Source: an uncultured virus (IMG/VR IMGVR_UViG_3300037493_005562)
Taxonomy: Duplodnaviria > Heunggongvirae > Uroviricota > Caudoviricetes
IMG/VR virus record: IMGVR_UViG_3300037493_005562
DNA: 64,000 nt
Strand: one strand, 5' to 3'
Positions within the stretch are counted from its first letter, which is position 1; every line of letters starts with the position of its first letter. The notes beneath the pieces are model-generated. The model did no database searches. It was not told the DNA's origin and was given only the letters and a program-made list of their open reading frames with translations. Made by a program: the position numbers and the translations under genes. Shown here piece after piece: positions 39-49,752 of this stretch.

Positions 39-43
39 TGAAG

Positions 44-118
44 TGCGGGAGACAGGACTCGAACCTGCACGATAGCCACGTTCCGAACGTGGTGGCCTAG
101 CCCTTGGCCCACTCCCGC
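44..118 (-). tRNA. tRNA-Pro(CGG)
   Basis: Cloverleaf; anticodon arm CCACG-TTCGGAA-CGTGG; T loop TTCGAGT. Confidence 0.9.
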
Positions 119-122
119 AAGA

Positions 123-200
123 TGGAGACCGATCCGGGACTCGAACCCGAACAACTGGTTTTGCAAACCTGTGGCCGCTCCACGGCGACACCGACCGGTC
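123..200 (-). tRNA. tRNA-Cys(GCA)
   Basis: Loop TTGCAAA, U73 discriminator, encoded CCA. Confidence 0.88.
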
Positions 201-207
201 ATGAATA

Positions 208-279
208 TTGGGGATAGATGAATCGAACATCTGCCTGCGGTTTCAGAGACCGCCGTACTACCATTATACAGAATCCCCA
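208..279 (-). tRNA. tRNA-Gln(CTG)
   Basis: GCGGT-CTCTGAA-ACCGC; TGGGGAT/ATCCCCA acceptor. Confidence 0.9.
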
Positions 280-287
280 ATGAATAC

Positions 288-365
288 TGGTGGGCGCAGC
301 AGGGCTCGAACCTGCGCATTTCCCGGTTATCAGCCGAGTGCCTTTACCAACTTGGCCACACGCCC
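288..365 (-). tRNA. tRNA-Ile(GAT)
   Basis: CTCGG-CTGATAA-CCGGG; encoded CCA. Confidence 0.92.
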
Positions 366-379
366 ATGAAAGAAACAAA

Positions 380-453
380 TGGCGGGAACGGCAAGAATCG
401 AACTTGCAATCGGCACCTTAACAGGGTGCTGCTAACCATTCAGCTTCGTTCCC
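380..453 (-). tRNA. tRNA-Asn(GTT)
   Basis: GCACC-CTGTTAA-GGTGC; encoded CCA. Confidence 0.9.
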
Positions 454-458
454 GAGAA

Positions 459-536
459 TGGAAGCGGGAGTGAGACTTGAACTCACGTGGAACAGGGTAT
501 GAGCCTGTGCTGGGGCCAACTCCAGTCTATCCCGCA
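459..536 (-). tRNA. tRNA-Met/Ile2(CAT)
   Basis: ACAGG-CTCATAC-CCTGT; unpaired 1:72; encoded CCA; Met versus Ile2 identity not resolved. Confidence 0.85.
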
Positions 537-541
537 ACAAA

Positions 542-616
542 TGGTGTTCCCACGGAGAATTGAACTCCGGTTTCCGGATTGAGAATCCAGCGTCCTTGCC
601 GCTAGACGATGGGAAC
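542..616 (-). tRNA. tRNA-Glu(CTC)
   Basis: CTGGA-TTCTCAA-TCCGG; encoded CCA. Confidence 0.92.
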
Positions 617-624
617 GTGAAGAA

Positions 625-696
625 TACGGGTGAGAGGGATCGAACCTCCGACCTGCTGGTTCCAAACCAGCCGCGCTCCCCCTGCGCTACACCCGT
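625..696 (-). tRNA. tRNA-Pro(TGG)
   Basis: GCTGG-TTTGGAA-CCAGC. Confidence 0.9.
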
Positions 697-707
697 GTGA
701 AGAGAAC

Positions 708-782
708 GGTGGGGTCGAGGGGGGTCGAACCCCTGTCTCTCGACTTAAAAGGACGGTGCTCTGCCGATTGAGCTACGACCCC
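708..782 (-). tRNA. tRNA-Lys(TTT)
   Basis: Loop CTTTTAA; canonical D and T arms; anticodon stem has mismatches. Confidence 0.85.
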
Positions 783-845
783 AGAGGTTTGGAGTCGTCG
801 GATTTTCGTGGCATCGCTGTCTCCGTGTCTGGGGTTGTGGGTGAA

Positions 846-921
846 TGGTGGGCAGCATCGGGCTCGAACCGATCGTCACCGGATTAAGAGTCCGGGGCTT
901 CACCATGGTAGCAAGCTGCCC
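846..921 (-). tRNA. tRNA-Lys(CTT)
   Basis: CCGGA-CTCTTAA-TCCGG; encoded CCA. Confidence 0.9.
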
Positions 922-932
922 ATGAACGAAAA

Positions 933-1010
933 TGGCGGTACGTACGGGATTTGAACCCGTGATCTCCAGCGTGACAGGCTAGCGGCCACTCCAGACTGGC
1001 CCAACGTACC
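933..1010 (-). tRNA. tRNA-Asp(GTC)
   Basis: CTAGC-CTGTCAC-GCTGG; encoded CCA. Confidence 0.92.
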
Positions 1011-1021
1011 GTAAGAAAAAG

Positions 1022-1097
1022 TGGGGTGAGTGAGGGGACTTGAACCCCCTCCACAGGCTTCACAGGCCCGCGCTCTACCGGTTAAGCTACACCCACC
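1022..1097 (-). tRNA. tRNA-His(GTG)
   Basis: CGGGC-CTGTGAA-GCCTG; G-1:C73; encoded CCA. Confidence 0.92.
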
Positions 1098-1109
1098 ACA
1101 AGAAAAGAA

Positions 1110-1182
1110 TGCCCACACGCGGACTCGAACCGCGAATCTTCGGCTTCGGAGGCCAACGCTCTATCCATTGAGCCATGTGGGC
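1110..1182 (-). tRNA. tRNA-Arg(CCG)
   Basis: TTGGC-CTCCGAA-GCCGA. Confidence 0.9.
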
Positions 1183-1193
1183 GAGATTGAGAG

Positions 1194-1290
1194 TGTACCC
1201 GGCGAGAGAGCGTCGTTGTTAGGCGACACATCTCCCGCCGGGAGTCACTACCCACATCGGATGGCGCCGACGTGGGGTTTCTCTCGTACA
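1194..1290 (-). ncRNA. Unknown structured RNA (three-way junction) inside tRNA array 1
   Basis: TGTAC/GTACA closing stem, 10-bp hairpin CCCACGTCGG/CCGATGTGGG and long hairpin CCCGGCGGGAGA..TCTCTCGCCGGG; no T loop. Confidence 0.5.
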
Positions 1291-1328
1291 ATCGATCTGG
1301 AGTTTTCAAGGAACTTGAAACATGAAGA

Positions 1329-1407
1329 TGGTGGGGAAAGCGGGAGTCGAACCCGCACTATTCCTGATTCGTAATCAGGTGGCCTGTCCAATTGGCCGGA
1401 TTTCCCC
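1329..1407 (-). tRNA. tRNA-Arg(ACG), first gene of array 1
   Basis: CCTGA-TTACGAA-TCAGG; encoded CCA. Confidence 0.9.
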
Positions 1408-1425
1408 ATGTCGTTTTCGGGGCCC

Positions 1426-1469
1426 AAAAACCAGAAACCCCGGTCGCTCTTTCGAGGGACCGGGGTTCC
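1426..1469 (-). terminator. Attenuator terminator upstream of tRNA array 1
   Basis: GGAACCCCGGTC-CCTC-GAAA-GAGC-GACCGGGGTTTC followed by TGGTTTTT. Confidence 0.85.
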
Positions 1470-1494
1470 GAGTGGCTGGGCTTCCTTTCGGTTG

Positions 1495-1692
1495 CTACTC
1501 CAGCTTCTCTCCCTGGTCCCGCGTCGCGGGCTTCTCGTCGCGCTCTTCGCGCCCGATACCATGGCCGATGGTATTCATCGGGATGGCGGCGTCTTGCGTT
1601 CCCTGCGCGCGGCCAACACACGGACACACGTCGACGACGGCCGCGGTTTTGACCGTGACTGGCGTGTTCGTGATGTTGCGGGTGAAGGACAC
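1495..1692 (-). CDS. Putative attenuation leader peptide of tRNA array 1 (65 aa)
   Basis: GTG start after GAGGT; lies between promoter and terminator; its 3' end forms the antiterminator arm; codons match array-1 anticodons. Confidence 0.75.
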   Translation of the reverse strand: MSFTRNITNTPVTVKTAAVVDVCPCVGRAQGTQDAAIPMNTIGHGIGREERDEKPATRDQGEKLE

Positions 1693-1784: not shown

Positions 1785-1813
1785 AAGGTACTCGATACGG
1801 TTACGGGGCGCAA
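1785..1813 (-). promoter_or_regulatory. Sigma70-type promoter of tRNA array 1
   Basis: TTGCGC-N17-TACCTT; 27/28 nt identical (1788-1815) to the array-2 promoter (27505-27532). Confidence 0.8.
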
Positions 1814-13311: not shown

Positions 13312-13658
13312 GACTTCTTCCTGTGGTCGCCGCGTTCGATCTCTTTGGCGAAACTCCCGCCGTAGTGGTCCCACAAATAGACCAGGGTTGCCTCCTTCTC
13401 GGTCTCGATCTCGCCACGGAGACGTTCAACCTCTGCGAGCAGGTAGGTGAGGTCGGCGGGAGCATTGGCGATCAACGCCGCGTGTGCGTGACCCTTCTCG
13501 TCCCCAGGAAGTCCTTCCTCGACCGTACATACGGACCAGGGATCTCCTGGGGCGTCCCTGTCCACGACTTCAACATCGCAAAGGTTACGGGGGTCTACGT
13601 GCCACGGGCCCGGTACCACGGCCGCAAGCCGTGACTTGATGTCGTCGATTCGGTTCAT
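13308..13658 (-). CDS. Ead/Ea22-like protein (paralog of 11587-12048)
   Basis: IKSRLAAVVPGPW..ALIANAPADLTYLLAEVERL; shared C-terminus IE.GDHRKK. Confidence 0.65.
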   Translation of the reverse strand: MNRIDDIKSRLAAVVPGPWHVDPRNLCDVEVVDRDAPGDPWSVCTVEEGLPGDEKGHAHAALIANAPADLTYLLAEVERLRGEIETEKEATLVYLWDHYGGSFAKEIERGDHRKKS

Positions 13659-14737
13659 CGAAGTCCCTCCGCGAATCCGTTCGGCTTGATGTGCCTTGTC
13701 CAGTGCGCCTGAGTTTGAACGTGCCCTGCGCGAACCCACTTCAAGAGCTTCTTCCTGAACTCTGAGAAGCGGAACCCTGCCGTCGTTCGCACGACGTAGC
13801 CTTCGGCCTCGGCCGACCAGTGCGGAGTCGGGACGAACTTCCGCAGAAGCGCTTCATCCCACGGGCCGCGGTACAAGACCGGCACCGTGTGGAGTCCGAG
13901 CATCTCAGCGTACGCGACGGTGTCATCCCACGAGAGCGCCTCGTTCTTCTCGTTCCAGATCGAGAACACGAAGAACACCGCAGGCAGGTTCTCGTACCGA
14001 ATCGAGTGCTCGCCCCACAGATTCTCGCCCGCCGCGCGCCACCCTTGAGGCAGCTCGTGGGCGATCTGTCCATGCAGTGCCTTCACGCGGTCGCGGTCGA
14101 TGCGCGGAGCGTACTCCAACGAGCGTGCGTGGACGTAGTCGGCGTACATGTTGGTGTTCTCGCCGTCGAGTTTCAACGTAACGACGACTTCCTGACCTTC
14201 GAGTCCCGAGAGGTCGTTCTGAACACGGTCGTCGTCCGTAACCCCGGGGGACCACGGGGCGTGATGAGATCGGGGATACTTCACGTAGGGCGTGAACAGG
14301 TGAAGGACTTCGGCCAGCACCTTCTGCACGCTCTCGTCGAAGAACAACTCGCCGCGTAGACGTGTCCCGTTCGCCAGAATGGCGTTGCCCCACTTGTCGT
14401 ATCTTTCGTCGGAGTAGAGGTGATTCGGGAGCACAATGCGCGCGATGCCCGCAGCCTCGCGGGCTTCCTCGACGGAGACGAGGGTCTGCTCGCACCGAAG
14501 GTGGTCGGCCTCGCAAACGGTGACGCCGTTGTCGAGGAAGTACCCTCCTTCCTCCCCAGGAGCGGTCCAGAGTTTGCGTTCGATCAGATGGTGAGCGTCA
14601 TGTTTGCCTTCGGGCGTCTCGCCCGCGGTCTTCCCGCAGAGCACGCACTTGTGCCCGTCCCGCGCGAACACGGTGACGCGGAACTCGTCCCTGGTCAGGA
14701 GCTTGTGCGCCGCTGGCGCTGTGTGGACGTGCGACAT
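13655..14737 (-). CDS. HNH endonuclease-RNA ligase (Rnl2-like) fusion
   Basis: N-terminal VFARDGHKCVLC..DAHHL..NGVTVCEADH; KYPRSHH; motif I TLKLDGEN; EGYVVR; KWVR. Confidence 0.85.
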   Translation of the reverse strand: MSHVHTAPAAHKLLTRDEFRVTVFARDGHKCVLCGKTAGETPEGKHDAHHLIERKLWTAPGEEGGYFLDNGVTVCEADHLRCEQTLVSVEEAREAAGIARIVLPNHLYSDERYDKWGNAILANGTRLRGELFFDESVQKVLAEVLHLFTPYVKYPRSHHAPWSPGVTDDDRVQNDLSGLEGQEVVVTLKLDGENTNMYADYVHARSLEYAPRIDRDRVKALHGQIAHELPQGWRAAGENLWGEHSIRYENLPAVFFVFSIWNEKNEALSWDDTVAYAEMLGLHTVPVLYRGPWDEALLRKFVPTPHWSAEAEGYVVRTTAGFRFSEFRKKLLKWVRAGHVQTQAHWTRHIKPNGFAEGLR

Positions 14738-15144
14738 CAGCCGTCCCACTCGGGACGGTACATCGATTGGGCGAGGCGACGAGCTGCTTCAAGCGTTGGG
14801 TGCTTTCCGTAGAGCTTCGCCCCAAGGCGAATCATCTTCATGCAGGCACGCGCTTCGTCTGGGTCTTTGCCGTCCAGGGCCCGAATTAGCGCGTCGACTT
14901 CACGATCAGGATTGAACGTCGTCTCGGGGACATCGTAAGGCCACTCCCACTCGGGTCGGTTGAACTCGGTCAGGAAGAGATTCCCAAACGCTTCGTCGAC
15001 TCCGCCGAAGTCCTTGACGTAGCGACGAACGTTCTCCAGTTCGAGCCGCGCTTTAGGTACGTCCTTCGCATCCAACGCCATGCTCATAAGTAGCAGCGCG
15101 GCGCTTGCTTGCTCCCGCGCCCAAATCTGGTCGGACGTTTTCAT
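14737..15144 (-). CDS. Hypothetical protein
   Basis: TGATG coupling on both sides. Confidence 0.55.
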   Translation of the reverse strand: MKTSDQIWAREQASAALLLMSMALDAKDVPKARLELENVRRYVKDFGGVDEAFGNLFLTEFNRPEWEWPYDVPETTFNPDREVDALIRALDGKDPDEARACMKMIRLGAKLYGKHPTLEAARRLAQSMYRPEWDG

Positions 15145-21852: not shown

Positions 21853-23502
21853 ATGATCTCTAGCTTGAAAATTACGGATCGCTCCGCTGCTCCCTGCCCC
21901 TGGTGGGGAGCCGTCACCGGGCTTCGCGACCAAACCGGTTTTGACTTCAAGCCGGGTGTAAACGTGATTGTCGGCCCTTCCGGGTCTGGACGCAGCACCC
22001 TGCTCCGAAGCATCGCACGTCTGCTGCACGCGGAAGACGGCGTGAGCGTCGTGAACAGTCAATCCGTGAGCAAGCTGGAGAAGTGGGAGCATACGGCGTC
22101 TTCAAACCGCCTCCAGTTGGGGGCAACCCTTAACTTCGACGGCAAGGCGGTGATCTACCTCGACCACCTGAACAAGCTGTCGGCAACGTCGGGGAGCGGC
22201 CCTGTCCGGCGCCGCCTCGAATACGTTCTCAAGGCTCTCAAAACGCAAGAGGCCCCGGAGATCAAGTGGGACTGGCTTTCCAGAAACATTGTGGTCCCTC
22301 CAGCCTCCCCCACGTACGCGACAACGGCGGCGATGACCTACCAAGAGAAGGAGAGGGCGAAGGTCGAGTCGATCTCGAACTCCCTGGTAGGGACGATCGA
22401 GGTGGGGCAGCCCACGCTGCTGATCGATAACATCCCCGGCATCTCGTTCCTCAACTCGATGTTCTTGTGGGATGAGATGCTCCGCGCGTCGGACAAATTG
22501 CAGATCATCACCGCACTTGACTCGCCGTGGGCGCTCTGCGCAGATCCCGACGTGAACCACATCGAACTGGTTCCAGGCTACCTCGACGTGTGCCGTGCAG
22601 GGCTCGCCTTTCTGAAGACATGCGCTCCAAGCGCCGAGGAGATCCGCAACGTACACGCGGAGGCGGTCTACGATGAGTGGAAGGCAACGGTTGTCGAAAC
22701 CACCATGGAAAAGCTGAATCTGACGAACATCGGAAACTCCGGGTACAGCCACAACCAGATCGGCTACTCGTCGTCGTCGTCCGCCCCTCCGTCGCCCCCG
22801 ACTCCCGCCGCCCCTTCGCGGACGAGCACTTGGAGAGACGAATGGGAATCAGCCGTCTACGATACCTCCCATCGCACGTCCACCACGACGTACGCAGGCA
22901 AAGGGAGATCCAAGACGTCCGAGGTCGTGCAGGGTTTCGAGATGAAAGATGCGGAGGTAGGTATCGCAGAGCCTTGCCCGTCTGCCATTCAAGAGACAAA
23001 GAAGAAAGCGGCAGCGGGGGCGAAGACGAAAGCCGCTCCCACGCCCACGGAGCTGCCTCCTGTGTCCGCGCTCGTGGCGGCCCTCCCGAAACCTCCGGTG
23101 GTTCCTGCCACACCTGTCGCAAACAACGACCCCCTCTCTGGGATCCGGAACTATATGCCGGACTGGTCTGTGAGCGACATCATCGCCATTCAAACGGAAC
23201 TCACGCGGCTGCGCTACTACGCGTTCAAGATCGACGGGAGTCTTGGGCACAACACGCAGCGGGCCCTTTTCGCGGCGTACGAAAACTCCGGTTGGAAGTA
23301 CATGGGCGCGGTAGCGATTCTTTCGTACCTCAAGAACAGCGCTCCTCTCGGACCAGAGCCCGCCCCCCTTACTGCCACGCCGCCCGCTCCCGGGGCCGCG
23401 GGCGAAAGGACGCCCAGACCTTCGGTACTCATCGACATCGAGGGTGGGATCGACGAACTCGATGAGCTGGAGCTGTCCGCCCGCTACGGGTGGTGCTCAT
23501 GA
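21853..23502 (+). CDS. Degenerate ABC/AAA_21-type ATPase fused to a peptidoglycan-binding-like domain
   Basis: FKPGVNVIVGPSGSGRST; LLIDN; C-terminal IQTELTRLRYYAFKIDGSLGHNTQRAL. Confidence 0.6.
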   Translation: MISSLKITDRSAAPCPWWGAVTGLRDQTGFDFKPGVNVIVGPSGSGRSTLLRSIARLLHAEDGVSVVNSQSVSKLEKWEHTASSNRLQLGATLNFDGKAVIYLDHLNKLSATSGSGPVRRRLEYVLKALKTQEAPEIKWDWLSRNIVVPPASPTYATTAAMTYQEKERAKVESISNSLVGTIEVGQPTLLIDNIPGISFLNSMFLWDEMLRASDKLQIITALDSPWALCADPDVNHIELVPGYLDVCRAGLAFLKTCAPSAEEIRNVHAEAVYDEWKATVVETTMEKLNLTNIGNSGYSHNQIGYSSSSSAPPSPPTPAAPSRTSTWRDEWESAVYDTSHRTSTTTYAGKGRSKTSEVVQGFEMKDAEVGIAEPCPSAIQETKKKAAAGAKTKAAPTPTELPPVSALVAALPKPPVVPATPVANNDPLSGIRNYMPDWSVSDIIAIQTELTRLRYYAFKIDGSLGHNTQRALFAAYENSGWKYMGAVAILSYLKNSAPLGPEPAPLTATPPAPGAAGERTPRPSVLIDIEGGIDELDELELSARYGWCS

Positions 23503-24545
23503 CGATCGGGGAAGTCCGACTCCGCATCGTCACGGCAAACAGTGGGCCTGCAAGGGCACGGGCTATCGTGGCTCCGTGGCAGTACGAAAGAGGCTTGCCA
23601 ACAAAGACATATCTCGTACAAGCTCGGCTCCTGGCTCTCCCCCCTGACGATCCCTTCGCCTCGTGGACTGACCTGTGTTTCGTAAGAGAGACACACCCCA
23701 TGCCCTCCCTCCGACAATCCCCCACGAGTACCCCCAGGGCCTCAAGGTGGTACGCAACAAACTCGTACGGGGAGAGCCTTACAGCGGCGCAGCTAAGTGC
23801 CAAGACGGCTGCGTCTTTGGGGTACGACACCCTTCTGCCGTCGGCTCAAGCCGAAGCTCGCCGGAAGCGTTCTGCCCTGATGTACCCGTGGACCTCCGGA
23901 GAAGGTAGTGCCGCTTGCCAACTCCGCTACTCCACTACTCAGTATCGAAGGAGCGTGTTCCGCATCTTGCAACGCTACGGCGCGTGCGTGTCGATGCGCA
24001 ACAGCATCGAGCTTCTGACGTACAGGAGTCAGGAAGTGGTGTTTGGAAATACCATCCGGTTCATAGCCGTCCTCACTCCAGACGCAAATGGTCCCGTAGA
24101 GACATACGGTTCGGGAGATACAGAGCAGAAAGAGTGCTCCTTCGTTTCGGAGCGTATGAATAACGAGCTTTCCGCGCTGTGGGCGCACTACCAGAAGGCT
24201 CAGGGCGCCGTTCCGGAAGCGTTCGTCGCCCCTCCCCCGCACCTCATGGCTATGCGCCTGCATTCCGAAACCGTTGTGGAGGCGGAGGCGTTCCCGTTCC
24301 GCATGTCCACAACAGGCGTGCCGGAACGCATCTTCACAGGGGCCTCTCCCAACCCCTTCGCAGGGACCTCTCCCAGCCCCTTCGTGTTCGAGGACGACGA
24401 GAACGAGAACGACGAGAACGAGAACGAAGACGACGAGAACGAGAACGAAGACGACGAGATCGAAGTCGTCGGAGACGCGAGCGCAACCCTCCGGCAAAGT
24501 CTCATCGACGTCCTCGTCAACAACCCCAGTCGGGGGAACCGGTAA
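23499..24545 (+). CDS. Hypothetical protein with acidic (EDDENEN)n tail
   Basis: ATGA overlap; repeat at ~24390-24460. Confidence 0.6.
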   Translation: MTIGEVRLRIVTANSGPARARAIVAPWQYERGLPTKTYLVQARLLALPPDDPFASWTDLCFVRETHPMPSLRQSPTSTPRASRWYATNSYGESLTAAQLSAKTAASLGYDTLLPSAQAEARRKRSALMYPWTSGEGSAACQLRYSTTQYRRSVFRILQRYGACVSMRNSIELLTYRSQEVVFGNTIRFIAVLTPDANGPVETYGSGDTEQKECSFVSERMNNELSALWAHYQKAQGAVPEAFVAPPPHLMAMRLHSETVVEAEAFPFRMSTTGVPERIFTGASPNPFAGTSPSPFVFEDDENENDENENEDDENENEDDEIEVVGDASATLRQSLIDVLVNNPSRGNR

Positions 24546-24550
24546 GAAAC

Positions 24551-24636
24551 GGCGGACACGGAGGGACTCGAACCCCCAAAGGCTTTCGCCCACGCTCGCT
24601 CTCAAGGCGAGTGCCTTACCTTTAGGCTACGTGCCC
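24551..24636 (-). tRNA. tRNA-Ser(TGA)
   Basis: CTCGC-CTTGAGA-GCGAG; long variable arm; G73. Confidence 0.88.
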
Positions 24637-24682
24637 ATGATGTCTGGGAGGGATGCGGTGCAAAACTGTGTTACAGCACCGA

Positions 24683-25189
24683 ATGTTCACCCTTACTCTC
24701 CCTTGGTTGGTCGTTGTGGCGTCACTGCTCTTGTGGCTTCCGCAGAACGCGGTTCACGAGGGGGCGCACTGTCTCGCACATAAGTATGCCGGGGACGAGA
24801 TCGTAAAGTTCTGGCCGTTCCCCTCTTGGGCCCTCGGGTCGTTCTCCTTCGCGTACATGAGCTACCGGAGGCGAACCCCCGTGTCCCCTCACCTGGACGG
24901 ATTCTGCGCAGCAGCCCCTCAGATCGTGAACACGTGCGTCCTCGCCCTGCTCATCCCGCTGCACTTCATCTCCCTTCCGCCCTGGTTGTTCTCGATCTGC
25001 GCCGCGTTGGTGATCGTGAACTTCGCAGACGGAGCCGTCAACCTGGGCACGTTCTACCGGTCGACGCCTCGTCCCACGGACGGGTGGACCTGGGCAGCCC
25101 TGTGGAAGCTGCCCACTTGGGGTTGCCGAGCCTTCGCGGTGACGTGGCACCTCCTGTTTGGTGCTCACGTCGCAGCTTTTCTGCTGTAA
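24683..25189 (+). CDS. Membrane protein with HExxH motif (M50/DUF3267-like metalloprotease)
   Basis: VHEGAH; AAAPQ; several hydrophobic segments. Confidence 0.65.
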   Translation: MFTLTLPWLVVVASLLLWLPQNAVHEGAHCLAHKYAGDEIVKFWPFPSWALGSFSFAYMSYRRRTPVSPHLDGFCAAAPQIVNTCVLALLIPLHFISLPPWLFSICAALVIVNFADGAVNLGTFYRSTPRPTDGWTWAALWKLPTWGCRAFAVTWHLLFGAHVAAFLL

Positions 25190-25194
25190 CAAGA

Positions 25195-25285
25195 TGGCGG
25201 AGAAGGCGAGATTTGAACTCGCACGCGCCTTGCGACGCACACTCGTTTTCGAGACGAGGCCAATATCCAGTTCTGGCACTTCTCC
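25195..25285 (-). tRNA. tRNA-Ser(CGA)
   Basis: CTCGT-CTCGAAA-ACGAG; variable arm; GCCA end. Confidence 0.9.
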
Positions 25286-25289
25286 AAGA

Positions 25290-25377
25290 TGGCGGAGCGT
25301 GCAAGAGTCGAACTTGCCTGGGCTTTTATACCCGTAGCCAATTTAGCAAATTGGGTGCCCACCTCGGGCAACGCACC
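25290..25377 (-). tRNA. tRNA-Ser(GCT)
   Basis: CCAAT-TTGCTAA-ATTGG; variable arm; short D arm; GCCA end. Confidence 0.85.
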
Positions 25378-25384
25378 GTGTAAA

Positions 25385-25506
25385 TTCCTGCCGCCGAACT
25401 TCCACGTCTCGGCACGCCTCGGGGGCTCTCGCCCAGGCATCGCTGCCTTGCTTCCCGAGGCCGGGGATTCGAACCCCACTAAGTCCCCCGAAGAGGACGA
25501 CAAGAA
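25385..25506 (-). ncRNA. Circularly permuted tRNA-like RNA (YrlA/Y-RNA-like topology)
   Basis: Order: closing stem, variable-arm hairpin, T arm GGGG-TTCGAAT-CCCC, closed acceptor stem GCCTCGGG..CCCGAGGC, D arm GCCGA..TCGGC, closing stem. Confidence 0.65.
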
Positions 25507-25507
25507 A

Positions 25508-25597
25508 TGGCGGAGCGCGTGGGCCTCGAACCCACCAGGGCCTTTCGACCCCCCTCTGGCTTCCAACCAGTGCCGGTCCCCGGACCGGTTCCGCTCC
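25508..25597 (-). tRNA. tRNA-Ser(GGA), atypical 6-bp D stem with 4-nt loop
   Basis: CTGG-TTGGAAG-CCAG; D arm CCGGTC-CGGG-GACCGG; GCCA end. Confidence 0.8.
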
Positions 25598-25606
25598 ATG
25601 AAAGAA

Positions 25607-25733
25607 TCGACCTGACAAGTAGAACAGTCCGTTACCGCGTTCCAACACCTCTCCGAAGAGAGCGGCCTCGCCCGTAGCCGTTGTCCGCCCCGAAGGACGG
25701 AGAGGAAGTCGAATCCTCAAGTGTTCAAGTCGA
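25607..25733 (-). ncRNA. Circularly permuted tRNA mimic with UUCG-capped acceptor and anticodon stems
   Basis: T arm GAGGA-TTCGACT-TCCTC; TCCGTCC-TTCG-GGGCGGA; D arm CGGC..GCCG; CTCTC-TTCG-GAGAG; closed by AACAC/GTGTT and TCGACTTGA/TCAGGTCGA. Confidence 0.65.
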
Positions 25734-25735
25734 AG

Positions 25736-25817
25736 GGTGCCCCGTGCCGGGATCGAGTCGGCAAGTCTTTCGACGCTGGCGTCTAGGGCCAGTGCGTTTG
25801 CATTTCGCCAACGGGGC
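25736..25817 (-). tRNA. tRNA-Leu(TAG), degenerate T and D loops
   Basis: CTGGC-CCTAGAC-GCCAG; variable arm GTC-GAAA-GAC; T loop CTCGATC. Confidence 0.7.
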
Positions 25818-25826
25818 AAAGAGAAG

Positions 25827-25899
25827 CAGGGACGCTCGGACTCGAACCGAGATCACCAGATTTGGAGTCTAGTGGGTTAGCCATTACCTTCACGTCCCT
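25827..25899 (-). tRNA. tRNA-Trp(CCA)
   Basis: CTAGA-CTCCAAA-TCTGG; G73. Confidence 0.9.
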
Positions 25900-25904
25900 A
25901 CGAA

Positions 25905-25966
25905 TGGTGCGATCGGCGGGAATCGAACCCACACCCTTTCGGACGCGCCGACGTTGCGGAGCGTCC
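25905..25966 (-). pseudogene. 3' half of a class II (Leu-like) tRNA
   Basis: GTCC-GAAA-GGGT variable arm, GTGGG-TTCGATT-CCCGC T arm, CGATCGC-A-CCA; no adjacent 5' half. Confidence 0.6.
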
Positions 25967-25986
25967 ACGAACGGGGCCCTATCCCC

Positions 25987-26754
25987 CTAGACTTTACCTG
26001 CTCGCAGTTTAGTCCAATATCCCCGTGCTGGAAGAGCAATGCCTCGGCGTCTACACCGATGGGCGACTGCATTACCCGAAACCCCTAATTGTCGTGCGAT
26101 AACGCTTGGTGGAACCTGCCACACCTTTACCGCCAGTTCCGAATCTACAGGCCACTGAGCACGTTCCTTCCTTGGAGGGTTACACTGTGAGCAAGTACGG
26201 GAAGCTCGCTGCTTGGTATTCCCACACTCACACAAGGAAGGGAGAGCCCTCCGCCGAGTCTTCCTACCTGCGGGACCTACGCCGCCATCCGTGTTCGTCT
26301 GGGAATGGCAGTTAGGGCACACGAAGCGTAGATTCTCCGGCCGATTATCCCAAGCTTTTCCGTTGATATGGTCCACCTCCAGCCGTAGAGGCCGCCCATT
26401 CCAGAACGGTTGTAGCCCACACTCACTGCACTTCAACTCCCGCCCAATCTCGATAAGCTTGCGCCGAAGGAGAGCGCCACGACACGGCCGGGTCAACTCG
26501 GGCCCCACAACAAGGATCTCGTCGGGCCTACGATACGAAGGAGACTTGCGGGCACTCCACGGTAGTAGACCCCGTTGCTGGGCACCTTTCATGTGGCTCA
26601 CATCCAAGCCGTACCTAACGATCAATCGTTGAATGTGACCGTAGTTTCCCCCGGAGGCGCGGAGACCAAGTACCCTGAGTACCCCCGCGATTGAAGGGGA
26701 AGTCTTAACGACTGGAGCTAACAATTCTCTGGTGTACTTGGTAGTCTTGCCCAT
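25987..26754 (-). CDS. HNH homing endonuclease inserted in tRNA array 2
   Basis: KCSECG..WNG..LEVDHINGKAWDNRPENLRFVCPNCHSQT; own promoter TTGACG-N17-TACAGT. Confidence 0.9.
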   Translation of the reverse strand: MGKTTKYTRELLAPVVKTSPSIAGVLRVLGLRASGGNYGHIQRLIVRYGLDVSHMKGAQQRGLLPWSARKSPSYRRPDEILVVGPELTRPCRGALLRRKLIEIGRELKCSECGLQPFWNGRPLRLEVDHINGKAWDNRPENLRFVCPNCHSQTNTDGGVGPAGRKTRRRALPSLCECGNTKQRASRTCSQCNPPRKERAQWPVDSELAVKVWQVPPSVIARQLGVSGNAVAHRCRRRGIALPARGYWTKLRAGKV

Positions 26755-26791
26755 GACCGCACTGTATGCCAATACCAGAAATACGTCAAGG

Positions 26792-26868
26792 GGTGCCGTC
26801 GGGGGAACTCGAATCCCCACATTACTGCCGTCTCAGGGCAGCTCCTCTACCAATTGGGATACGACGGC
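26792..26868 (-). tRNA. tRNA-Leu(GAG), no variable arm
   Basis: CTGCC-CTGAGAC-GGCAG; 6-nt variable loop; A73. Confidence 0.88.
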
Positions 26869-26877
26869 GAACTAAAG

Positions 26878-26956
26878 GGTGCCCTCGCCCGGACTCGAAC
26901 CGGGACGTTAACTGGGTCTGAGCCAGCCTCCTCTACCAAGATTGGGATACGAGGGC
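26878..26956 (-). tRNA. tRNA-Leu(CAG), no variable arm
   Basis: GCTGG-CTCAGAC-CCAGT; 6-nt variable loop; A73. Confidence 0.88.
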
Positions 26957-26961
26957 ATGAA

Positions 26962-27054
26962 TGGTGGGCGGAGAGGGAGTTGAACCCCCAGAGTTTACCC
27001 GAATGGGACTGGTTTTACAGACCAGCGCGACCTACCGATAGTCGCCATCCGCCC
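26962..27054 (-). tRNA. tRNA-Tyr(GTA)
   Basis: CTGGT-CTGTAAA-ACCAG; long variable arm; ACCA end. Confidence 0.9.
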
Positions 27055-27061
27055 GTAACAG

Positions 27062-27135
27062 GGGTCAAGTCCAGGATCGAACTGGCTATTCTGCCTTTTC
27101 AGAGCAGCGAGGACACCGATGTCCTCCCCAAGACC
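27062..27135 (-). tRNA. tRNA-Phe(GAA), atypical
   Basis: CTGCT-CTGAAAA-GGCAG; two U-U mismatches in acceptor stem; C discriminator. Confidence 0.7.
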
Positions 27136-27143
27136 AAAGAAAA

Positions 27144-27219
27144 TGCGGACGGTCGGATTCGAACCGACAAACGAAGTCTTTTGAGGACCCCTGGTATACC
27201 AAGTTCCCTGCACGTCCGC
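27144..27219 (-). tRNA. tRNA-Leu(CAA), no variable arm; first gene of array 2
   Basis: GGGTC-CTCAAAA-GACTT; 5-nt variable loop. Confidence 0.85.
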
Positions 27220-27311
27220 GTGAAGTCGTCATCTTGATTCAGGATGTCAGAGATCGAGAAGCCGCTGCCAGGAACCGTTCCCTGCTTCGCCGCCCTCGAC
27301 CCTCTGGTCCC

Positions 27312-27356
27312 AAAAAGAGGAAACCCCCCTGGACCGTCGTGGTCGAGGGGGGTCCC
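27312..27356 (-). terminator. Attenuator terminator upstream of tRNA array 2
   Basis: GGACCCCCCTCGACC-ACGAC-GGTCCAGGGGGGTTTCC followed by TCTTTTT. Confidence 0.85.
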
Positions 27357-27375
27357 GTACCATCTGTCACGATGG

Positions 27376-27492
27376 CTACGTCGCCGCCCCCGGCGTCGAA
27401 AGCAGATAGGAACTCGACCATGAGCTATAAAAGCTCGTGGTGAGGGCCGTAAAGCTCTCGGACAGACGGGTGGTGGCGCGCAAGGTCTTCAT
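27376..27492 (-). CDS. Putative attenuation leader peptide of tRNA array 2 (38 aa, MKTLRATTRLSESFTALTTSFYSSWSSSYLLSTPGAAT)
   Basis: Starts ~9 nt below the -10 box; run of 13 S/F/Y/W/L codons; stop codon lies inside the antiterminator. Confidence 0.82.
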   Translation of the reverse strand: MKTLRATTRLSESFTALTTSFYSSWSSSYLLSTPGAAT

Positions 27493-27501
27493 GTTGCCTT
27501 G

Positions 27502-27530
27502 AATGTACTCGGTACGGTTACGGGGCGCAA
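27502..27530 (-). promoter_or_regulatory. Sigma70-type promoter of tRNA array 2
   Basis: TTGCGC-N17-TACATT; near-identical to the array-1 promoter. Confidence 0.8.
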
Positions 27531-27576
27531 GGGCGGCGCAAGAAAAAAGTGAGGGGTCGGCGTTCAATGCCATAAA

Positions 27577-28629
27577 CTAGGGCTTCGGGATGACGGCCCC
27601 TCCAGACACGAACCATGTACCCGTGGGCAAGTCGGCAGGTTGCGACCCCTGCCACTGAAGCAAGAACGAACCTGAAATGTTGCCGTTTGGCAGCCCCCAG
27701 GTGACGGGGCCCACGATGTCTTCACAGATCACGCGTACGTCGCTGATGCCGTTGATCGAGCCCCCCGGGACCGAGAAGAAGGCTGCTGCTGCCAATACAC
27801 CGTTCTGTGCGTGGATCGAGATGTCTTGCAGGGACATGTTGGCAACGCCCGTGCCCTTAAACATCACCCACTGCTGCGAGTTACACTGAATGGTGCCGTT
27901 CTTGAACGTACCGTTCGCGTTCGTGTTGAAGATCGGGGTACCTCCCGTGGCGGTCCAGAGATCCGAGTTCCACTCGAACCGCTGAAGGTGAAGGCCCTCG
28001 CCTGCCACGGCACCAGGACTGTCACACTCAAAGACGACCCCGTTGATCGTGATGACGTCCCCCCAGATTCCCTGCGCCTTGATCACACAGGTGGCGCCAG
28101 ATCCCCACATCACGACGTCCTCGAACACGAGCGTCGTACTGAGCCAATCTTGCACAAACGCGGGGGCTGAGAAGAACATGGTCAGGTTCTTGAAGGTGAT
28201 GTTCTCACCTCCTGCCGCAGGACCGGGGCTGTTTACTGTGAGAGTGTAGTCAGGATTGAAGCGCCGGAACTTCGGATCCCGCGTCGAGTAGATCACGAGA
28301 GGGTGTGTGCCCAGGTACTCCTGGCCCACCTCAACGGGGTTCCAGTCATGCTCTTGATCTTCACGAAGGCGACAGAGAATCGTAGTTCCAGCAGGGAACG
28401 CCGCCTGACCCACCGTGATGGCGGCTCCAACCGAAGGGTAGATCCGTCGAGCGGCATCCACTGCGGCGAGCAGATCGATGTAGTATTCATTCGTGGCAAC
28501 GAAAGGCGCGCTGGAGGGAGCCGCAGCGATCATCGCCGCGACTTCCGTACCCGAGGGGTACTGTCCCGCGCCCGTGCCCGTAGGAACGTCGCCAAAGCCG
28601 TGCGCGTGGTTGGGAATGTGTTCGCCCAT
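27577..28629 (-). CDS. Hypothetical beta-rich protein (possible beta-helix or receptor-binding protein)
   Basis: ITFKNLT, LVFEDVV, FKNGTI type strands; RBS present. Confidence 0.6.
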   Translation of the reverse strand: MGEHIPNHAHGFGDVPTGTGAGQYPSGTEVAAMIAAAPSSAPFVATNEYYIDLLAAVDAARRIYPSVGAAITVGQAAFPAGTTILCRLREDQEHDWNPVEVGQEYLGTHPLVIYSTRDPKFRRFNPDYTLTVNSPGPAAGGENITFKNLTMFFSAPAFVQDWLSTTLVFEDVVMWGSGATCVIKAQGIWGDVITINGVVFECDSPGAVAGEGLHLQRFEWNSDLWTATGGTPIFNTNANGTFKNGTIQCNSQQWVMFKGTGVANMSLQDISIHAQNGVLAAAAFFSVPGGSINGISDVRVICEDIVGPVTWGLPNGNISGSFLLQWQGSQPADLPTGTWFVSGGAVIPKP

Positions 28630-47684: not shown

Positions 47685-48394
47685 AACCCTACTACCGGGC
47701 GGTAGCGGGGGTGGAGGTGTTTCACCGGATGGTCTCAGACCCTCAGGTGGCTTCCGATCTGGCGTTCTACGTGACGGGAGGTTCGACAAGTCGAGTCTCT
47801 ACCGCCGCCACGGACATCCAGCGCATGTTGCAGCAACTCAGGAGTGCGATCCCGTACACCTTCGAGCGCAAGCTGGCCGACATGGTGTTTTCTTTGGGGC
47901 TTGACGACAGGCCCCCGCCGCCGGGAGTCTCGATTCCTCCGTTGATCGCCCCGGCGATCTGGATCGGCTTCGAGACTCCGATCCCCCTCTCGTCGGTCGA
48001 GGCTTTGCAGCACGAACAGGCGCTCAACGTCTATAAGCACTGGGAGAGGGGCGAGGTGCTCGGCTTCCTTGTTGCGGATGATAACGGCACCCCCGTCGTT
48101 TTCGAGTTCGTATCGGACGGCCGAGACCCGACGACAAACATCCCTCTTTGGCTCTGTCGCTACATGCTTGACGAGTCCTCGCCTCCCGTACCAGGGTGGT
48201 GTGGGCCGAGAGACTACTTCCCCTGGCGCATTGCGGCACTTATCGGGATCGTGCAGGACGCCGATGAGAGCGTGGTCATCGAGCAGACGAAAGCCTCCTA
48301 CGGTCTCCGTCGAGAACGAGAACAGGTCGAACGTAGAACGCGTACAAACTTGTCGGGACTAACGACGGGGTACACGGTGCGTTTGCGCGAGTGA
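47681..48394 (+). CDS. Hypothetical protein
   Basis: GTGA overlap. Confidence 0.55.
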   Translation: MKPYYRAVAGVEVFHRMVSDPQVASDLAFYVTGGSTSRVSTAATDIQRMLQQLRSAIPYTFERKLADMVFSLGLDDRPPPPGVSIPPLIAPAIWIGFETPIPLSSVEALQHEQALNVYKHWERGEVLGFLVADDNGTPVVFEFVSDGRDPTTNIPLWLCRYMLDESSPPVPGWCGPRDYFPWRIAALIGIVQDADESVVIEQTKASYGLRREREQVERRTRTNLSGLTTGYTVRLRE

Positions 48395-48465
48395 TCCCCC
48401 CTGCCTACCACATCGCGCCTCGTCGCGCTATACTTCGCGGGACACCACTCCCCGGAGCGTACTCC

Positions 48466-49752
48466 GTGTCCAGGATACTCGCACACAAGATCGCTCTTGA
48501 TCCCAGCCCCGACCAGCGCGTAGCGCTGGCGAAGGCCGCTGGCTGTGCGCGAGTCGCTTACAACTGGGGTCTCGCGGAGTGGACTCGTCAGTATGCCGCT
48601 CACAAGGTAGATCCTACCCTTCCTAAGCCGAATGGTGCCGCGCTTCGGAAGCAGTGGAACTCCGTAAAACACGAGCTGTTTCCCTGGGTGTCGGAGTCCC
48701 CGAAGGATGCGAACATCGAAGCGCTGTTCGACTTGGAGAAAGCGTTCAAGTCGTTCTTCGAAAAACGTACGAAGTACCCTAAGTTCCACTCGAAGCGGAA
48801 GAACACTCCCAGTTTCGGAGTGAGCAACGACAAGTTCCGCTTCGCGGGTAAGAAGGTTCGCCTGCCTGTGATCGGGTGGATCAAGACACGTGAGGCACTA
48901 CGCTTCGAAGGGAAGATCCTCTCGGGTCGAGTGACGTGCCGACGAGGTCGATGGCATCTATCTGTTCACGTCGAACTTCCGGAAAGCTACGCGAGACATG
49001 CAGCGCCTACGGATACGATCGTAGGTATTGATCTCGGGGTGTTGACGCTCGCGACCCTCTCGAACGGGACGGTGATCGAGAACCCTCGCGCTCTACGCAA
49101 CGCACAAAAACGACTGCATCGTGCTGAACTGTCCGTCGCTAGGAAACGTCGTGCATCGGACAAGAAACGCGGCGAACGCAAGAAGGGCGAAAAGCGCGAA
49201 ACGTCGAAACGACTACACGCGGCGTATCGAAAGCTGTCTCGCGTTCACGTCGATGTGGCGGCGGTTCGAGCAGATGTGATCCACAAAACGACGACGAAGA
49301 TCGCCGAGACCTTCCAGACCGTCGTCGTTGAGGATCTCGCGGTCCGCAATATGACACGTCGTGCGAAAGGTCGCGGGCGCGCTGCGAAGGCGGGGCTGAA
49401 CCGTTCGATTCTCGACGTGGGGTTTGGCGAGTTTCGTCGTCAACTCACCTACAAGCTCCCTCTTCATGGTGGGACGCTCATCGTCGCAGATCGCTTTTTT
49501 GCATCTTCGAAGACCTGTTCCGGCTGCGGAACGGTCAAGAAGGACTTGAGTTTGAAGGACCGCACTTTCACGTGCGGAGCCTGTAGCCTGTCAGTCAATC
49601 GTGACTTGAACGCGGCTTGCAATCTACGTACCCTCGGCTTGAGGGGAACTAACGCGCGCGGACATCGTGGAAGACCAACTGGAGACTCGTCTCCGGCGGC
49701 AACGGTGGTTGAAACGCGAACTCAAACACTGCACACTTGTGTGCACGTTTAA
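48466..49752 (+). mobile_element. tnpB: Solo TnpB RNA-guided endonuclease (IS607 or IS200/IS605 type), no TnpA
   Basis: AHKIALDP..AAGCARVAYNWGL; RuvC VGIDLGV, VVVEDL, NRDLNAA; Zn finger SSKTCSGCG..CGAC. Confidence 0.92.

Follow-up and report, generated by a model that had tools for sequence, protein, structure and literature searches.

Phage tRNA genes are usually discussed as constitutive codon-usage helpers or as decoys against tRNA-cutting defences. The locus described here raises the question of whether such genes can be placed under the control of the decoding that they serve. It lies in a 64,000-nucleotide (nt) stretch of DNA from an uncultured virus of the Caudoviricetes (IMG/VR record IMGVR_UViG_3300037493_005562), here called the window, which carries two groups of tRNA genes, array 1 and array 2. 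Each is headed by a leader made up of a promoter-like block, a small open reading frame (ORF) and a hairpin with a U-rich tail. A first-pass annotation, made by a model from the letters alone, had proposed that the leader of array 2 (leader 2) is an attenuator whose codons match the tRNAs behind it. We now assign a probability of roughly 0.7 to the reading that leader 2 is a ribosome-mediated leader-peptide transcription attenuator gating a phage tRNA operon. The proposal gains support from a second copy of the arrangement in the window, with the same motif, a complementary ORF, an antiterminator significant against shuffled sequences and a terminator, and from five of the seven other phages surveyed.

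A short ORF rich in the codons of the downstream tRNAs

ARAGORN finds 22 tRNA genes in the window, all on the minus strand, with 14 in array 1 and 8 in array 2 (24551-27219). Rfam adds two further tRNA-like genes to array 2 (25597-25512 and 25817-25738), which raises its count to ten tRNA or tRNA-like genes, with four for Leu, one each for Tyr and Trp and four for Ser. Upstream of them, in minus-strand order, stand the promoter-like block, a 38-codon ORF and a hairpin with a U-rich tail, with the ORF placed between the stop of the upstream gene (27577) and the first tRNA (27219). The parts of leader 2 are as follows.

27495-27532, minus strand: promoter-like block common to leader 1 (shared 26-nt motif, leader alignment)
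27376-27492, minus strand: leader ORF 2, 38 codons plus UAG, ATG at 27492, translation MKTLRATTRLSESFTALTTSFYSSWSSSYLLSTPGAAT
27397-27435, minus strand: 13-codon candidate regulatory run SFYSSWSSSYLLS, 12 of 13 codons cognate to array-2 tRNAs, the UUU Phe codon not
27397-27459, minus strand: long imperfect hairpin inside the ORF, including the run (predicted fold)
27382-27395, minus strand: small GC hairpin CGCCGGGGGCGGCG in minimum-energy structures, competing with the antiterminator for the G run
27344-27392, minus strand: predicted antiterminator, with the last codons and the UAG (27378-27376) as 5' arm and the terminator 5' arm as 3' arm
27311-27356, minus strand: predicted intrinsic terminator, hairpin 27356-27319 and U-rich tail 27318-27311

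In the promoter-like block, the proposed -35 hexamer TTGCGC (27530-27525) is followed after a 17-nt spacer by the proposed -10 hexamer TACATT (27507-27502). Since the latter ends 9 nt upstream of the leader-2 ATG, the sequence suggests that the mRNA is nearly leaderless.

The array-2 tRNAs read 17 of the 37 post-start codons of this ORF, and each of the ten array-2 anticodons has a cognate codon in it, a full coverage reached by 0.46% of 37-codon open windows (six frames). Leu, Phe, Tyr, Trp and Ser (L/F/Y/W/S) together account for 19 of the 37 residues (binomial p 1.1e-4). The Ser anticodons GCU, UGA, CGA and GGA are all served by the Ser codons present (AGC, UCA, UCG, AGU and UCC), and Leu is encoded by UUG, CUG, CUC and CUU. 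Among the 11 L/F/Y/W/S runs of at least 7 residues in the six frames, the run SFYSSWSSSYLLS is the second longest, the sole longer one being a low-complexity SF repeat.

The first-pass annotation had described a 38-codon ORF behind a promoter, a 13-codon run with five Ser codons covering all four Ser anticodons of the array, and the Leu codons ttg, ctg and ctc; all of these are present, and the Leu codons also include CUU. Its description of the array, as tRNAs for L, F, Y, W and S only, has to be amended. Genes for Leu, Tyr, Trp and Ser were found, but neither ARAGORN nor Rfam finds a tRNA-Phe in array 2, and the Phe part of the codon/tRNA match is therefore wrong. Nor does the array consist of tRNAs only, as it also carries an HNH ORF and an opposite-strand ORF.

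The complementary leader of array 1

A 26-nt motif, TTGCGCCCCGTAACCGTAYCGAGTAC, is present in exactly two copies in the window, at 27530-27505 within the promoter-like block of leader 2 and at 1813-1788 in front of array 1; it occurs 0 times in shuffled sequences. The second copy heads the following features.

1788-1813, minus strand: second motif copy, heading array 1 (motif search)
1495-1692, minus strand: leader ORF 1, GUG start, 65 codons plus UAG (reading frame, composition)
1423-1523, minus strand: predicted leader-1 antiterminator (1523-1453, stop codon inside) and terminator (hairpin 1469-1434, tail 1433-1423)
43-1407, minus strand: tRNA array 1, 14 visible genes, Arg x2, His, Asp, Lys x2, Pro x2, Glu, Met, Asn, Ile, Gln and Cys (ARAGORN); probably cut by the window start

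The two leaders align only in the promoter block and in the terminator tails, and the composition of leader 1 is the complement of that of leader 2. L/F/Y/W/S make up 3 of its 64 residues (binomial p 1.1e-4; empirical fraction of open windows with such a composition, p 0.0066), while none of the 15 other amino acids is absent; Thr, Val, Ala and Gly together account for 27 of the 64. Leader 1 offers a cognate codon for every one of the 14 visible array-1 anticodons, as do 1.1% of open windows. It has 35 array-1-type residues against 2 of array-2 type, and leader 2 has 5 against 17 (Fisher p 1.3e-8). A GAGG lies 10 nt upstream of the leader-1 GUG.

The predicted leader-1 antiterminator has an energy of -32.3 kcal/mol, and its pairing gain is matched by 1 of 1000 shuffles. 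The terminator, at -26.8 kcal/mol, carries the tail UGGUUUUUGGG, and 20 nt separate this tail from the first array-1 tRNA.

Codon-matched leaders in other huge phages

The first-pass annotation had proposed a search upstream of related phage tRNA arrays for short ORFs that track array content, and such ORFs stand before arrays of several other huge phages. We compared the best ORF score of each tRNA unit for its own and for swapped tRNA sets in a label-permutation test (20000 permutations), using 220 and 350 nt of upstream sequence.

LR745208: p 5e-5 (220 nt), p 5e-5 (350 nt)
CcrSC: p 0.36 (220 nt), p 0.0025 (350 nt)
SCTP-2: p 0.015 (220 nt), p 0.018 (350 nt)
RsoM2USA: p 0.125 (220 nt), p 0.11 (350 nt), not significant
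LR756500: p 0.0097 (220 nt), p 0.039 (350 nt)
LR756501: p 0.51 (220 nt), p 0.52 (350 nt), not significant
LR745206: p 2e-4 (220 nt), p 0.0015 (350 nt)

Leader ORFs follow the downstream tRNAs in five of these seven huge-phage records (p < 0.05 at 350 nt). In LR745208 (uncultured, 485 kb), the tRNAs are sorted by amino acid and most blocks stand behind a consensus promoter and a matching short ATG ORF.

Thr x3 block: leader MRFFTTTRTRTAGLTRKG
Arg x3 + Gly x2 block: leader MSFSMYTKTTTHGRDGGTLARGCGRVQRRRRIRPTT
Leu x5 block: leader with CUG, CUA, UUG, CUU and UUA
Glu/Asp/Glu block: leader MNSYTTSERERESDSERT
Tyr/Cys/His block: leader MNQHLHHHCY
Pro/Ala block: leader MNLSTHSTNTAPAATAACVVACVGPAAPPAA
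Gln x2 block: leader ending QQPQQQQQ

The large array of CcrSC, PTKLLLHASSSW (Pro, Thr, Lys, Leu x3, His, Ala, Ser x3 and Trp), has a leader with 33 of 38 cognate residues. Canonical terminators follow the leaders of SCTP-2, LR745206 and LR756500, which are AT-rich records; the SCTP-2 leaders have one terminator in common, and in at least two of them the end of the ORF and the stop codon pair with the terminator 5' arm. The leaders of LR745208, CcrSC, SCTP-2, LR756500 and LR745206 resemble those of the window in their repeated promoter/terminator cassette, in a variable ORF that follows the downstream tRNAs and, for at least two SCTP-2 leaders, in an ORF end lying in the predicted antiterminator arm. 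They differ in having no sequence homology with the window leaders and, for LR745208, in the absence of an evident U-tract. Moreover, arrays of the LR745208 type are sorted by single amino acids, whereas the window splits the code into two large sets.

In front of the Ser x4 block of LR745208 (L008 1254), only about 70 nt lie between the preceding gene and the first tRNA, and they contain no leader ORF. Not every block is gated. Elsewhere in this record (L006 2197-2407) there are two odd tRNA-like genes, each behind its own short ORF, of which ARAGORN calls one with a four-base anticodon, ttta, while the other, found by Rfam only, has an enlarged anticodon loop.

Many leader N-termini are Thr-rich whatever tRNAs follow, both in the window (27492-27468 and 1692-1663) and at the other phage loci L007, L006 and L011, with MKTLRATT, MSFTRNITNT, MSFSMYTKTTT, MNSYTTS and MNLSTHSTNT as examples.

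A variant of leader 2 in a second metagenome

The stretch is found in sediment metagenome runs, none of them listed as RNA. Run X2, from a second sediment metagenome, contains a 1635-nt contig that agrees with positions 27224-27532 except for 7 differences (about 98% identity), and both of its flanks are unlike the window. Because the contig keeps the block from promoter to spacer while both flanks differ, we regard the leader as a conserved cassette. Five listed differences (27359, 27313, 27308, 27307 and 27283) all fall downstream of the stop codon, with none in the ORF or the promoter block. The contig sequence upstream of the promoter resembles that of leader 1, and this resemblance suggests that leader cassettes recombine.

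Predicted RNA structures and the proposed mechanism

None of 200 shuffles folds as stably as the 211-nt leader 2 (z-score -5.05). Its predicted terminator hairpin (-27.4 kcal/mol) is followed by UCUUUUUG, a tail like that of leader 1. In the nascent 59-nt RNA, which extends up to the terminator 5' arm, the minimum-energy fold is the antiterminator (-26.0 kcal/mol); the exact pairing drawn in the first-pass annotation gives -23.7 kcal/mol. The long hairpin within the ORF may be a pause or region-1 structure, judging from the predicted fold.

We then considered how a ribosome on the ORF would affect the choice between the two structures. With leader 2 modelled as nascent RNA, stalls at codons 5-30 leave the terminator arm sequestered at 0.66-0.71, and stalls at codons 31-36 at 0.24-0.54. 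The corresponding values for leader 1 go from 0.58-0.72 to 0.25-0.47 from codon 55 on. This modelled effect of stall position fits an attenuator.

We infer from these elements that the ORF is translated, that transcription ends around 27311, that the two structures act as a switch and that read-through responds to tRNA supply, in the following way. Transcription would start at the promoter motif, which is common only to the two tRNA arrays of the window, and a ribosome would translate the short ORF, the central run of which is spelled in Ser, Leu, Tyr and Trp codons that the tRNAs directly behind it decode. With fast decoding the ribosome would reach the UAG and, because this stop codon lies in the antiterminator 5' arm, would keep that arm single-stranded; the GC hairpin and U-tract would then form, ending transcription about 90 nt before the first tRNA and leaving the array off. 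If any of the charged tRNAs were scarce, the ribosome would stall in the run, at least 6 codons upstream, the antiterminator would fold, and read-through would allow the array to be made. The new tRNAs would relieve the stall and the circuit would thereby form a negative feedback loop, while array 1 would be under its own leader for the other amino acids. The array is thus probably made when ribosomes read array-type codons slowly, for which host tRNA cleavage, codon-usage mismatch or amino-acid starvation could be the trigger.

Evidence against the attenuator and alternative explanations

Several results weigh against an attenuator in leader 2. In the coding part, 20 of the 37 post-start codons are non-cognate, 8 of them Thr, and two UUU codons are present with no tRNA-Phe in the array. 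There is no evident Shine-Dalgarno sequence before the ORF. The promoter claimed by the first-pass annotation corresponds to the promoter-like block at 27532-27495, whose motif is repeated at array 1, but a consensus scanner does not call it and its -35 hexamer matches at 3 of 6 positions. The same holds for the claimed terminator, for which the strong hairpin and U-rich tail speak, whereas a simple consensus scanner calls the terminator of neither leader 1 nor leader 2. In the X2 contig, a U-to-C change weakens the U-tract and another change breaks an antiterminator pair. Among the other phages, the permutation test gave no significance for RsoM2USA and LR756501, and the LR745208 leaders have no evident U-tract terminator.

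The predicted switch meets further difficulties. The first-pass annotation had proposed an alternative hairpin that contains the UAG and sequesters the terminator arm, and had suggested folding the region for two exclusive structures. Such a hairpin is indeed the minimum-energy fold of the nascent RNA, but its pairing gain in leader 2 is equalled or exceeded by 664 of 1000 dinucleotide shuffles (567 of 1000 for an upstream part of 60 nt), and it is therefore not beyond chance. At equilibrium the terminator is always favoured, with a probability of 0.86-0.99 at every ribosome position. In the nascent-RNA model, arm sequestration with the ribosome at the stop codon is 0.56, modestly below the stalled value of 0.69.

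In the strongest alternative, the ORF does sense decoding but the output could be Rho access, RNase processing, transcript stability or interference of the ribosome with folding of the first tRNA. The chance-level antiterminator of leader 2 and the lack of a switch in equilibrium folding point in this direction, as do the leaders of LR745208, which stop 6-50 nt from the first tRNA and in which no U-tract is evident. On the other hand, strong hairpins with U-tracts are present in both window leaders and in SCTP-2, LR745206 and LR756500, and the leader-1 antiterminator is significant. We consider this alternative unlikely.

A constitutive promoter combined with a leaky terminator or processing hairpin would do away with sensing altogether: the ORFs would be untranslated and their codon content coincidental or a by-product of RNA structure. 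The missing Shine-Dalgarno sequence, the position of the run inside a long hairpin and the silence of the simple scanner on a promoter agree with this. Untranslated sequence has no reason to follow tRNA identity, however, and here the two leaders have complementary composition (the Fisher test above), all anticodons are covered, and the permutation test is significant in five of seven other phages. These observations make a constitutive arrangement very unlikely.

Still less probable, in our judgement, is that the hairpin and U-tract end the transcript of the upstream gene (27577-28629), with the tRNAs expressed from another promoter in the 90-nt spacer and the motif acting as an operator or packaging-type site. 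An upstream ATG at 27573, which abuts the stop of the preceding gene, shares the frame of leader ORF 2, and this would agree with such an arrangement, as would the weak -35 match. Against it, the order of motif, ORF, terminator and tRNA recurs at array 1, with its 20 nt from tail to tRNA; the X2 variant contig retains exactly the block from motif to spacer; and the scanner finds no promoter-like site in the spacer. That the ORFs are functional micropeptides unrelated to tRNA sensing is the least likely of all, since, apart from loosely Thr-rich N-termini across phages (MSFSMYTKTTT, MNSYTTS, MSFTRNITNT), the two leaders have no common sequence beyond the promoter block and their composition follows the array and not a conserved peptide.

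The attenuator remains the reading that we prefer for leader 2. A wider claim, for which we see even odds, is that huge-phage tRNA blocks stand under "roll-call" leaders with a codon per tRNA. Such leaders would measure decoding codon by codon and replace exactly the failing tRNA set, for example after the action of host anticodon nucleases or host shut-off, in a feedback circuit widespread among viruses from GC-rich to AT-rich, CcrSC and SCTP-2 included.

Relation to known systems

The closest relatives in architecture are the multivalent leader-peptide attenuators of enterobacteria, namely the thr and ilvGMEDA leaders, with trp, his, leu and pheA as further examples. Like attenuators of the thr/ilv type, the window leaders have a promoter-proximal short ORF rich in the candidate regulatory codons, several amino acids per leader, a stop codon beside or inside a predicted antiterminator, and a predicted intrinsic terminator, exclusive with it, before the first structural gene. 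Unlike them, they precede tRNA genes, are borne by a phage and would be read from a nearly leaderless mRNA, and they have no sequence homology to them; because the regulated genes are tRNAs, the sensed molecule would be the product itself. The number of inputs also differs, as leader 2 lists 4 amino acids and 10 anticodons, and leader 1 up to 15 amino acids in 65 codons.

A second comparison is with the attenuators of synthetase genes, such as the pheST leader peptide pheM and the T-box leaders. These likewise place a component of the decoding apparatus under the control of the cognate charged tRNA supply, but they regulate protein genes and respond to one amino acid, and T-boxes bind uncharged tRNA without a ribosome. 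A cmscan search of 23500-28500 against Rfam, with E-values up to 1, returned only tRNA-type matches and two chance hits, with no amino-acid leader family and no T-box.

In mycobacteria, polycysteine leaderless short ORFs are reported to act as Cys-responsive attenuators (bioRxiv 10.1101/834739). They share with the proposed window attenuators a (nearly) leaderless short ORF at the 5' end that senses aminoacyl-tRNA supply by stalling; they differ in being cellular, in responding to a single amino acid and in controlling protein genes of Cys metabolism.

The first-pass annotation was not aware of such a mechanism for tRNA gene arrays, and our full-text literature searches likewise returned no account of leader peptides before tRNA genes; as far as these searches go, the codon-matched leaders of the other huge phages are unpublished too. 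Two candidate precedents were rejected. One was the idea that E. coli tRNA-Phe genes might have Phe-rich leaders: at K-12 pheV the tRNA is immediately preceded by a promoter-like site alone, with no leader ORF, and a BLAST search with a phage tRNA-Phe found nothing in E. coli genomes. The other was a tRNA-operon passage in PMC3082878, which is unrelated.

If the attenuator reading is correct, phage tRNA expression would be a regulated response to the state of the host decoding machinery, and the leader sequence would state which tRNAs the phage monitors. The tRNA block would become the regulatory unit, here a Leu/Ser/Tyr/Trp block versus the rest, and leader-peptide attenuation would extend from amino-acid and synthetase genes to tRNA genes. 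Such leaders would also offer natural multi-codon sensors for synthetic biology. The idea could be put to a direct test in cultivable phages such as CcrSC (host Caulobacter vibrioides CB15) and SCTP-2 (Salicola).

Composition of array 2

On the minus strand, array 2 runs in the order Leu-like(CAA), Tyr, Leu(CAG), Leu(GAG), HNH ORF, Trp, Leu-like(UAG), Ser(GGA), Ser(GCU), Ser(CGA), opposite-strand ORF and Ser(UGA). The anticodons UAG (25817-25738) and GGA (25597-25512) were read by eye from the anticodon loops.

27144-27219, minus strand: first array gene, a tRNA of atypical form, anticodon CAA, short variable arm (ARAGORN; Rfam 22.8 bits)
26792-27054, minus strand: tRNA-Tyr(GUA), tRNA-Leu(CAG) and tRNA-Leu(GAG) (ARAGORN, Rfam)
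25987-26820, minus strand: HNH homing-endonuclease ORF within the array (phrog_10822, E-value 3.3e-41)
25195-25899, minus strand: tRNA-Trp(CCA), Leu-UAG-like gene, Ser(GGA), Ser(GCU) and Ser(CGA) (ARAGORN, Rfam, by eye)
25817-25738, minus strand: Leu-UAG-like tRNA-like gene (Rfam only, 40.1 bits)
25597-25512, minus strand: tRNA-Ser(GGA) (Rfam; anticodon by eye)
24551-24636, minus strand: tRNA-Ser(UGA), last array-2 gene, set apart by the opposite-strand ORF (ARAGORN, Rfam)

Two of these genes are unusual. The first gene scores below the 29-bit Rfam cut-off and, although its anticodon CAA is that of Leu, its short variable arm is unlike that of bacterial tRNA-Leu. The gene at 25817-25738 was listed by one Rfam scan only and not by a narrower rescan; its anticodon loop, CCUAGAC, has a C where U33 is expected, and it may represent a variant of Leu-UAG or else a gene in decay. 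A solitary T-arm-like motif, GGGGTTCGAATCCCC, which lies between Ser(GGA) and Ser(GCU) at about 25440-25480 (minus strand), may be a tRNA remnant.

No ATG ORF that could serve as an internal leader was seen in the gaps inside array 2. A sigma-70-like site is called mid-array at 26789-26761. The opposite-strand ORF (24653-25189, plus strand, 178 aa) has a third-position GC of 0.78, hydrophobic stretches and an HEGAH motif, and has no Pfam or PHROGs match. Beside array 2 ends a 351-aa ORF whose C-terminus is an acidic D/E/N repeat (24334-24545, plus strand); its antisense frame at 24389-24457 (minus strand) is the 23-residue SF repeat that forms the longest L/F/Y/W/S run in the window.

Genomic setting

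Nothing in the phage collection is a near match to the array region, and the promoter motif has no match in viral or metagenome contigs. Six motif matches in genome contigs, with no tRNA nearby, were discarded because about 17 would be expected by chance (18-mer, estimate). Two other neighbouring proteins have no relatives in viral contigs, and the upstream 350-aa protein has none in the phage collection or in viral contigs; a metagenome homologue, P0002, is 87% identical to the latter.

The window has about 61% GC and belongs to a large phage. Pfam and PHROGs scans of 51 window ORFs revealed an RNA ligase, HNH endonucleases, a Dda-like helicase and TnpB, a jumbo-phage setting, and returned no aminoacyl-tRNA synthetase and no tRNA-repair kinase. 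The RNA ligase (13655-14749, minus strand; Pfam RNA_ligase E-value 1.2e-27; phrog_24030) lies between the two arrays, has an HNH-like N-terminal part and shares about 53% identity with its counterparts in CcrSC and CcrBL9, which are Caulobacter jumbo phages, and in an uncultured phage of 485 kb. Its position fits a tRNA-repair theme, although no kinase or phosphatase partner was found among the scanned ORFs. Further along, at 48391-49752 on the plus strand, the window carries a TnpB/OrfB gene of the IS605 family (Pfam OrfB_IS605) with a Cas12f1-like TNB domain.

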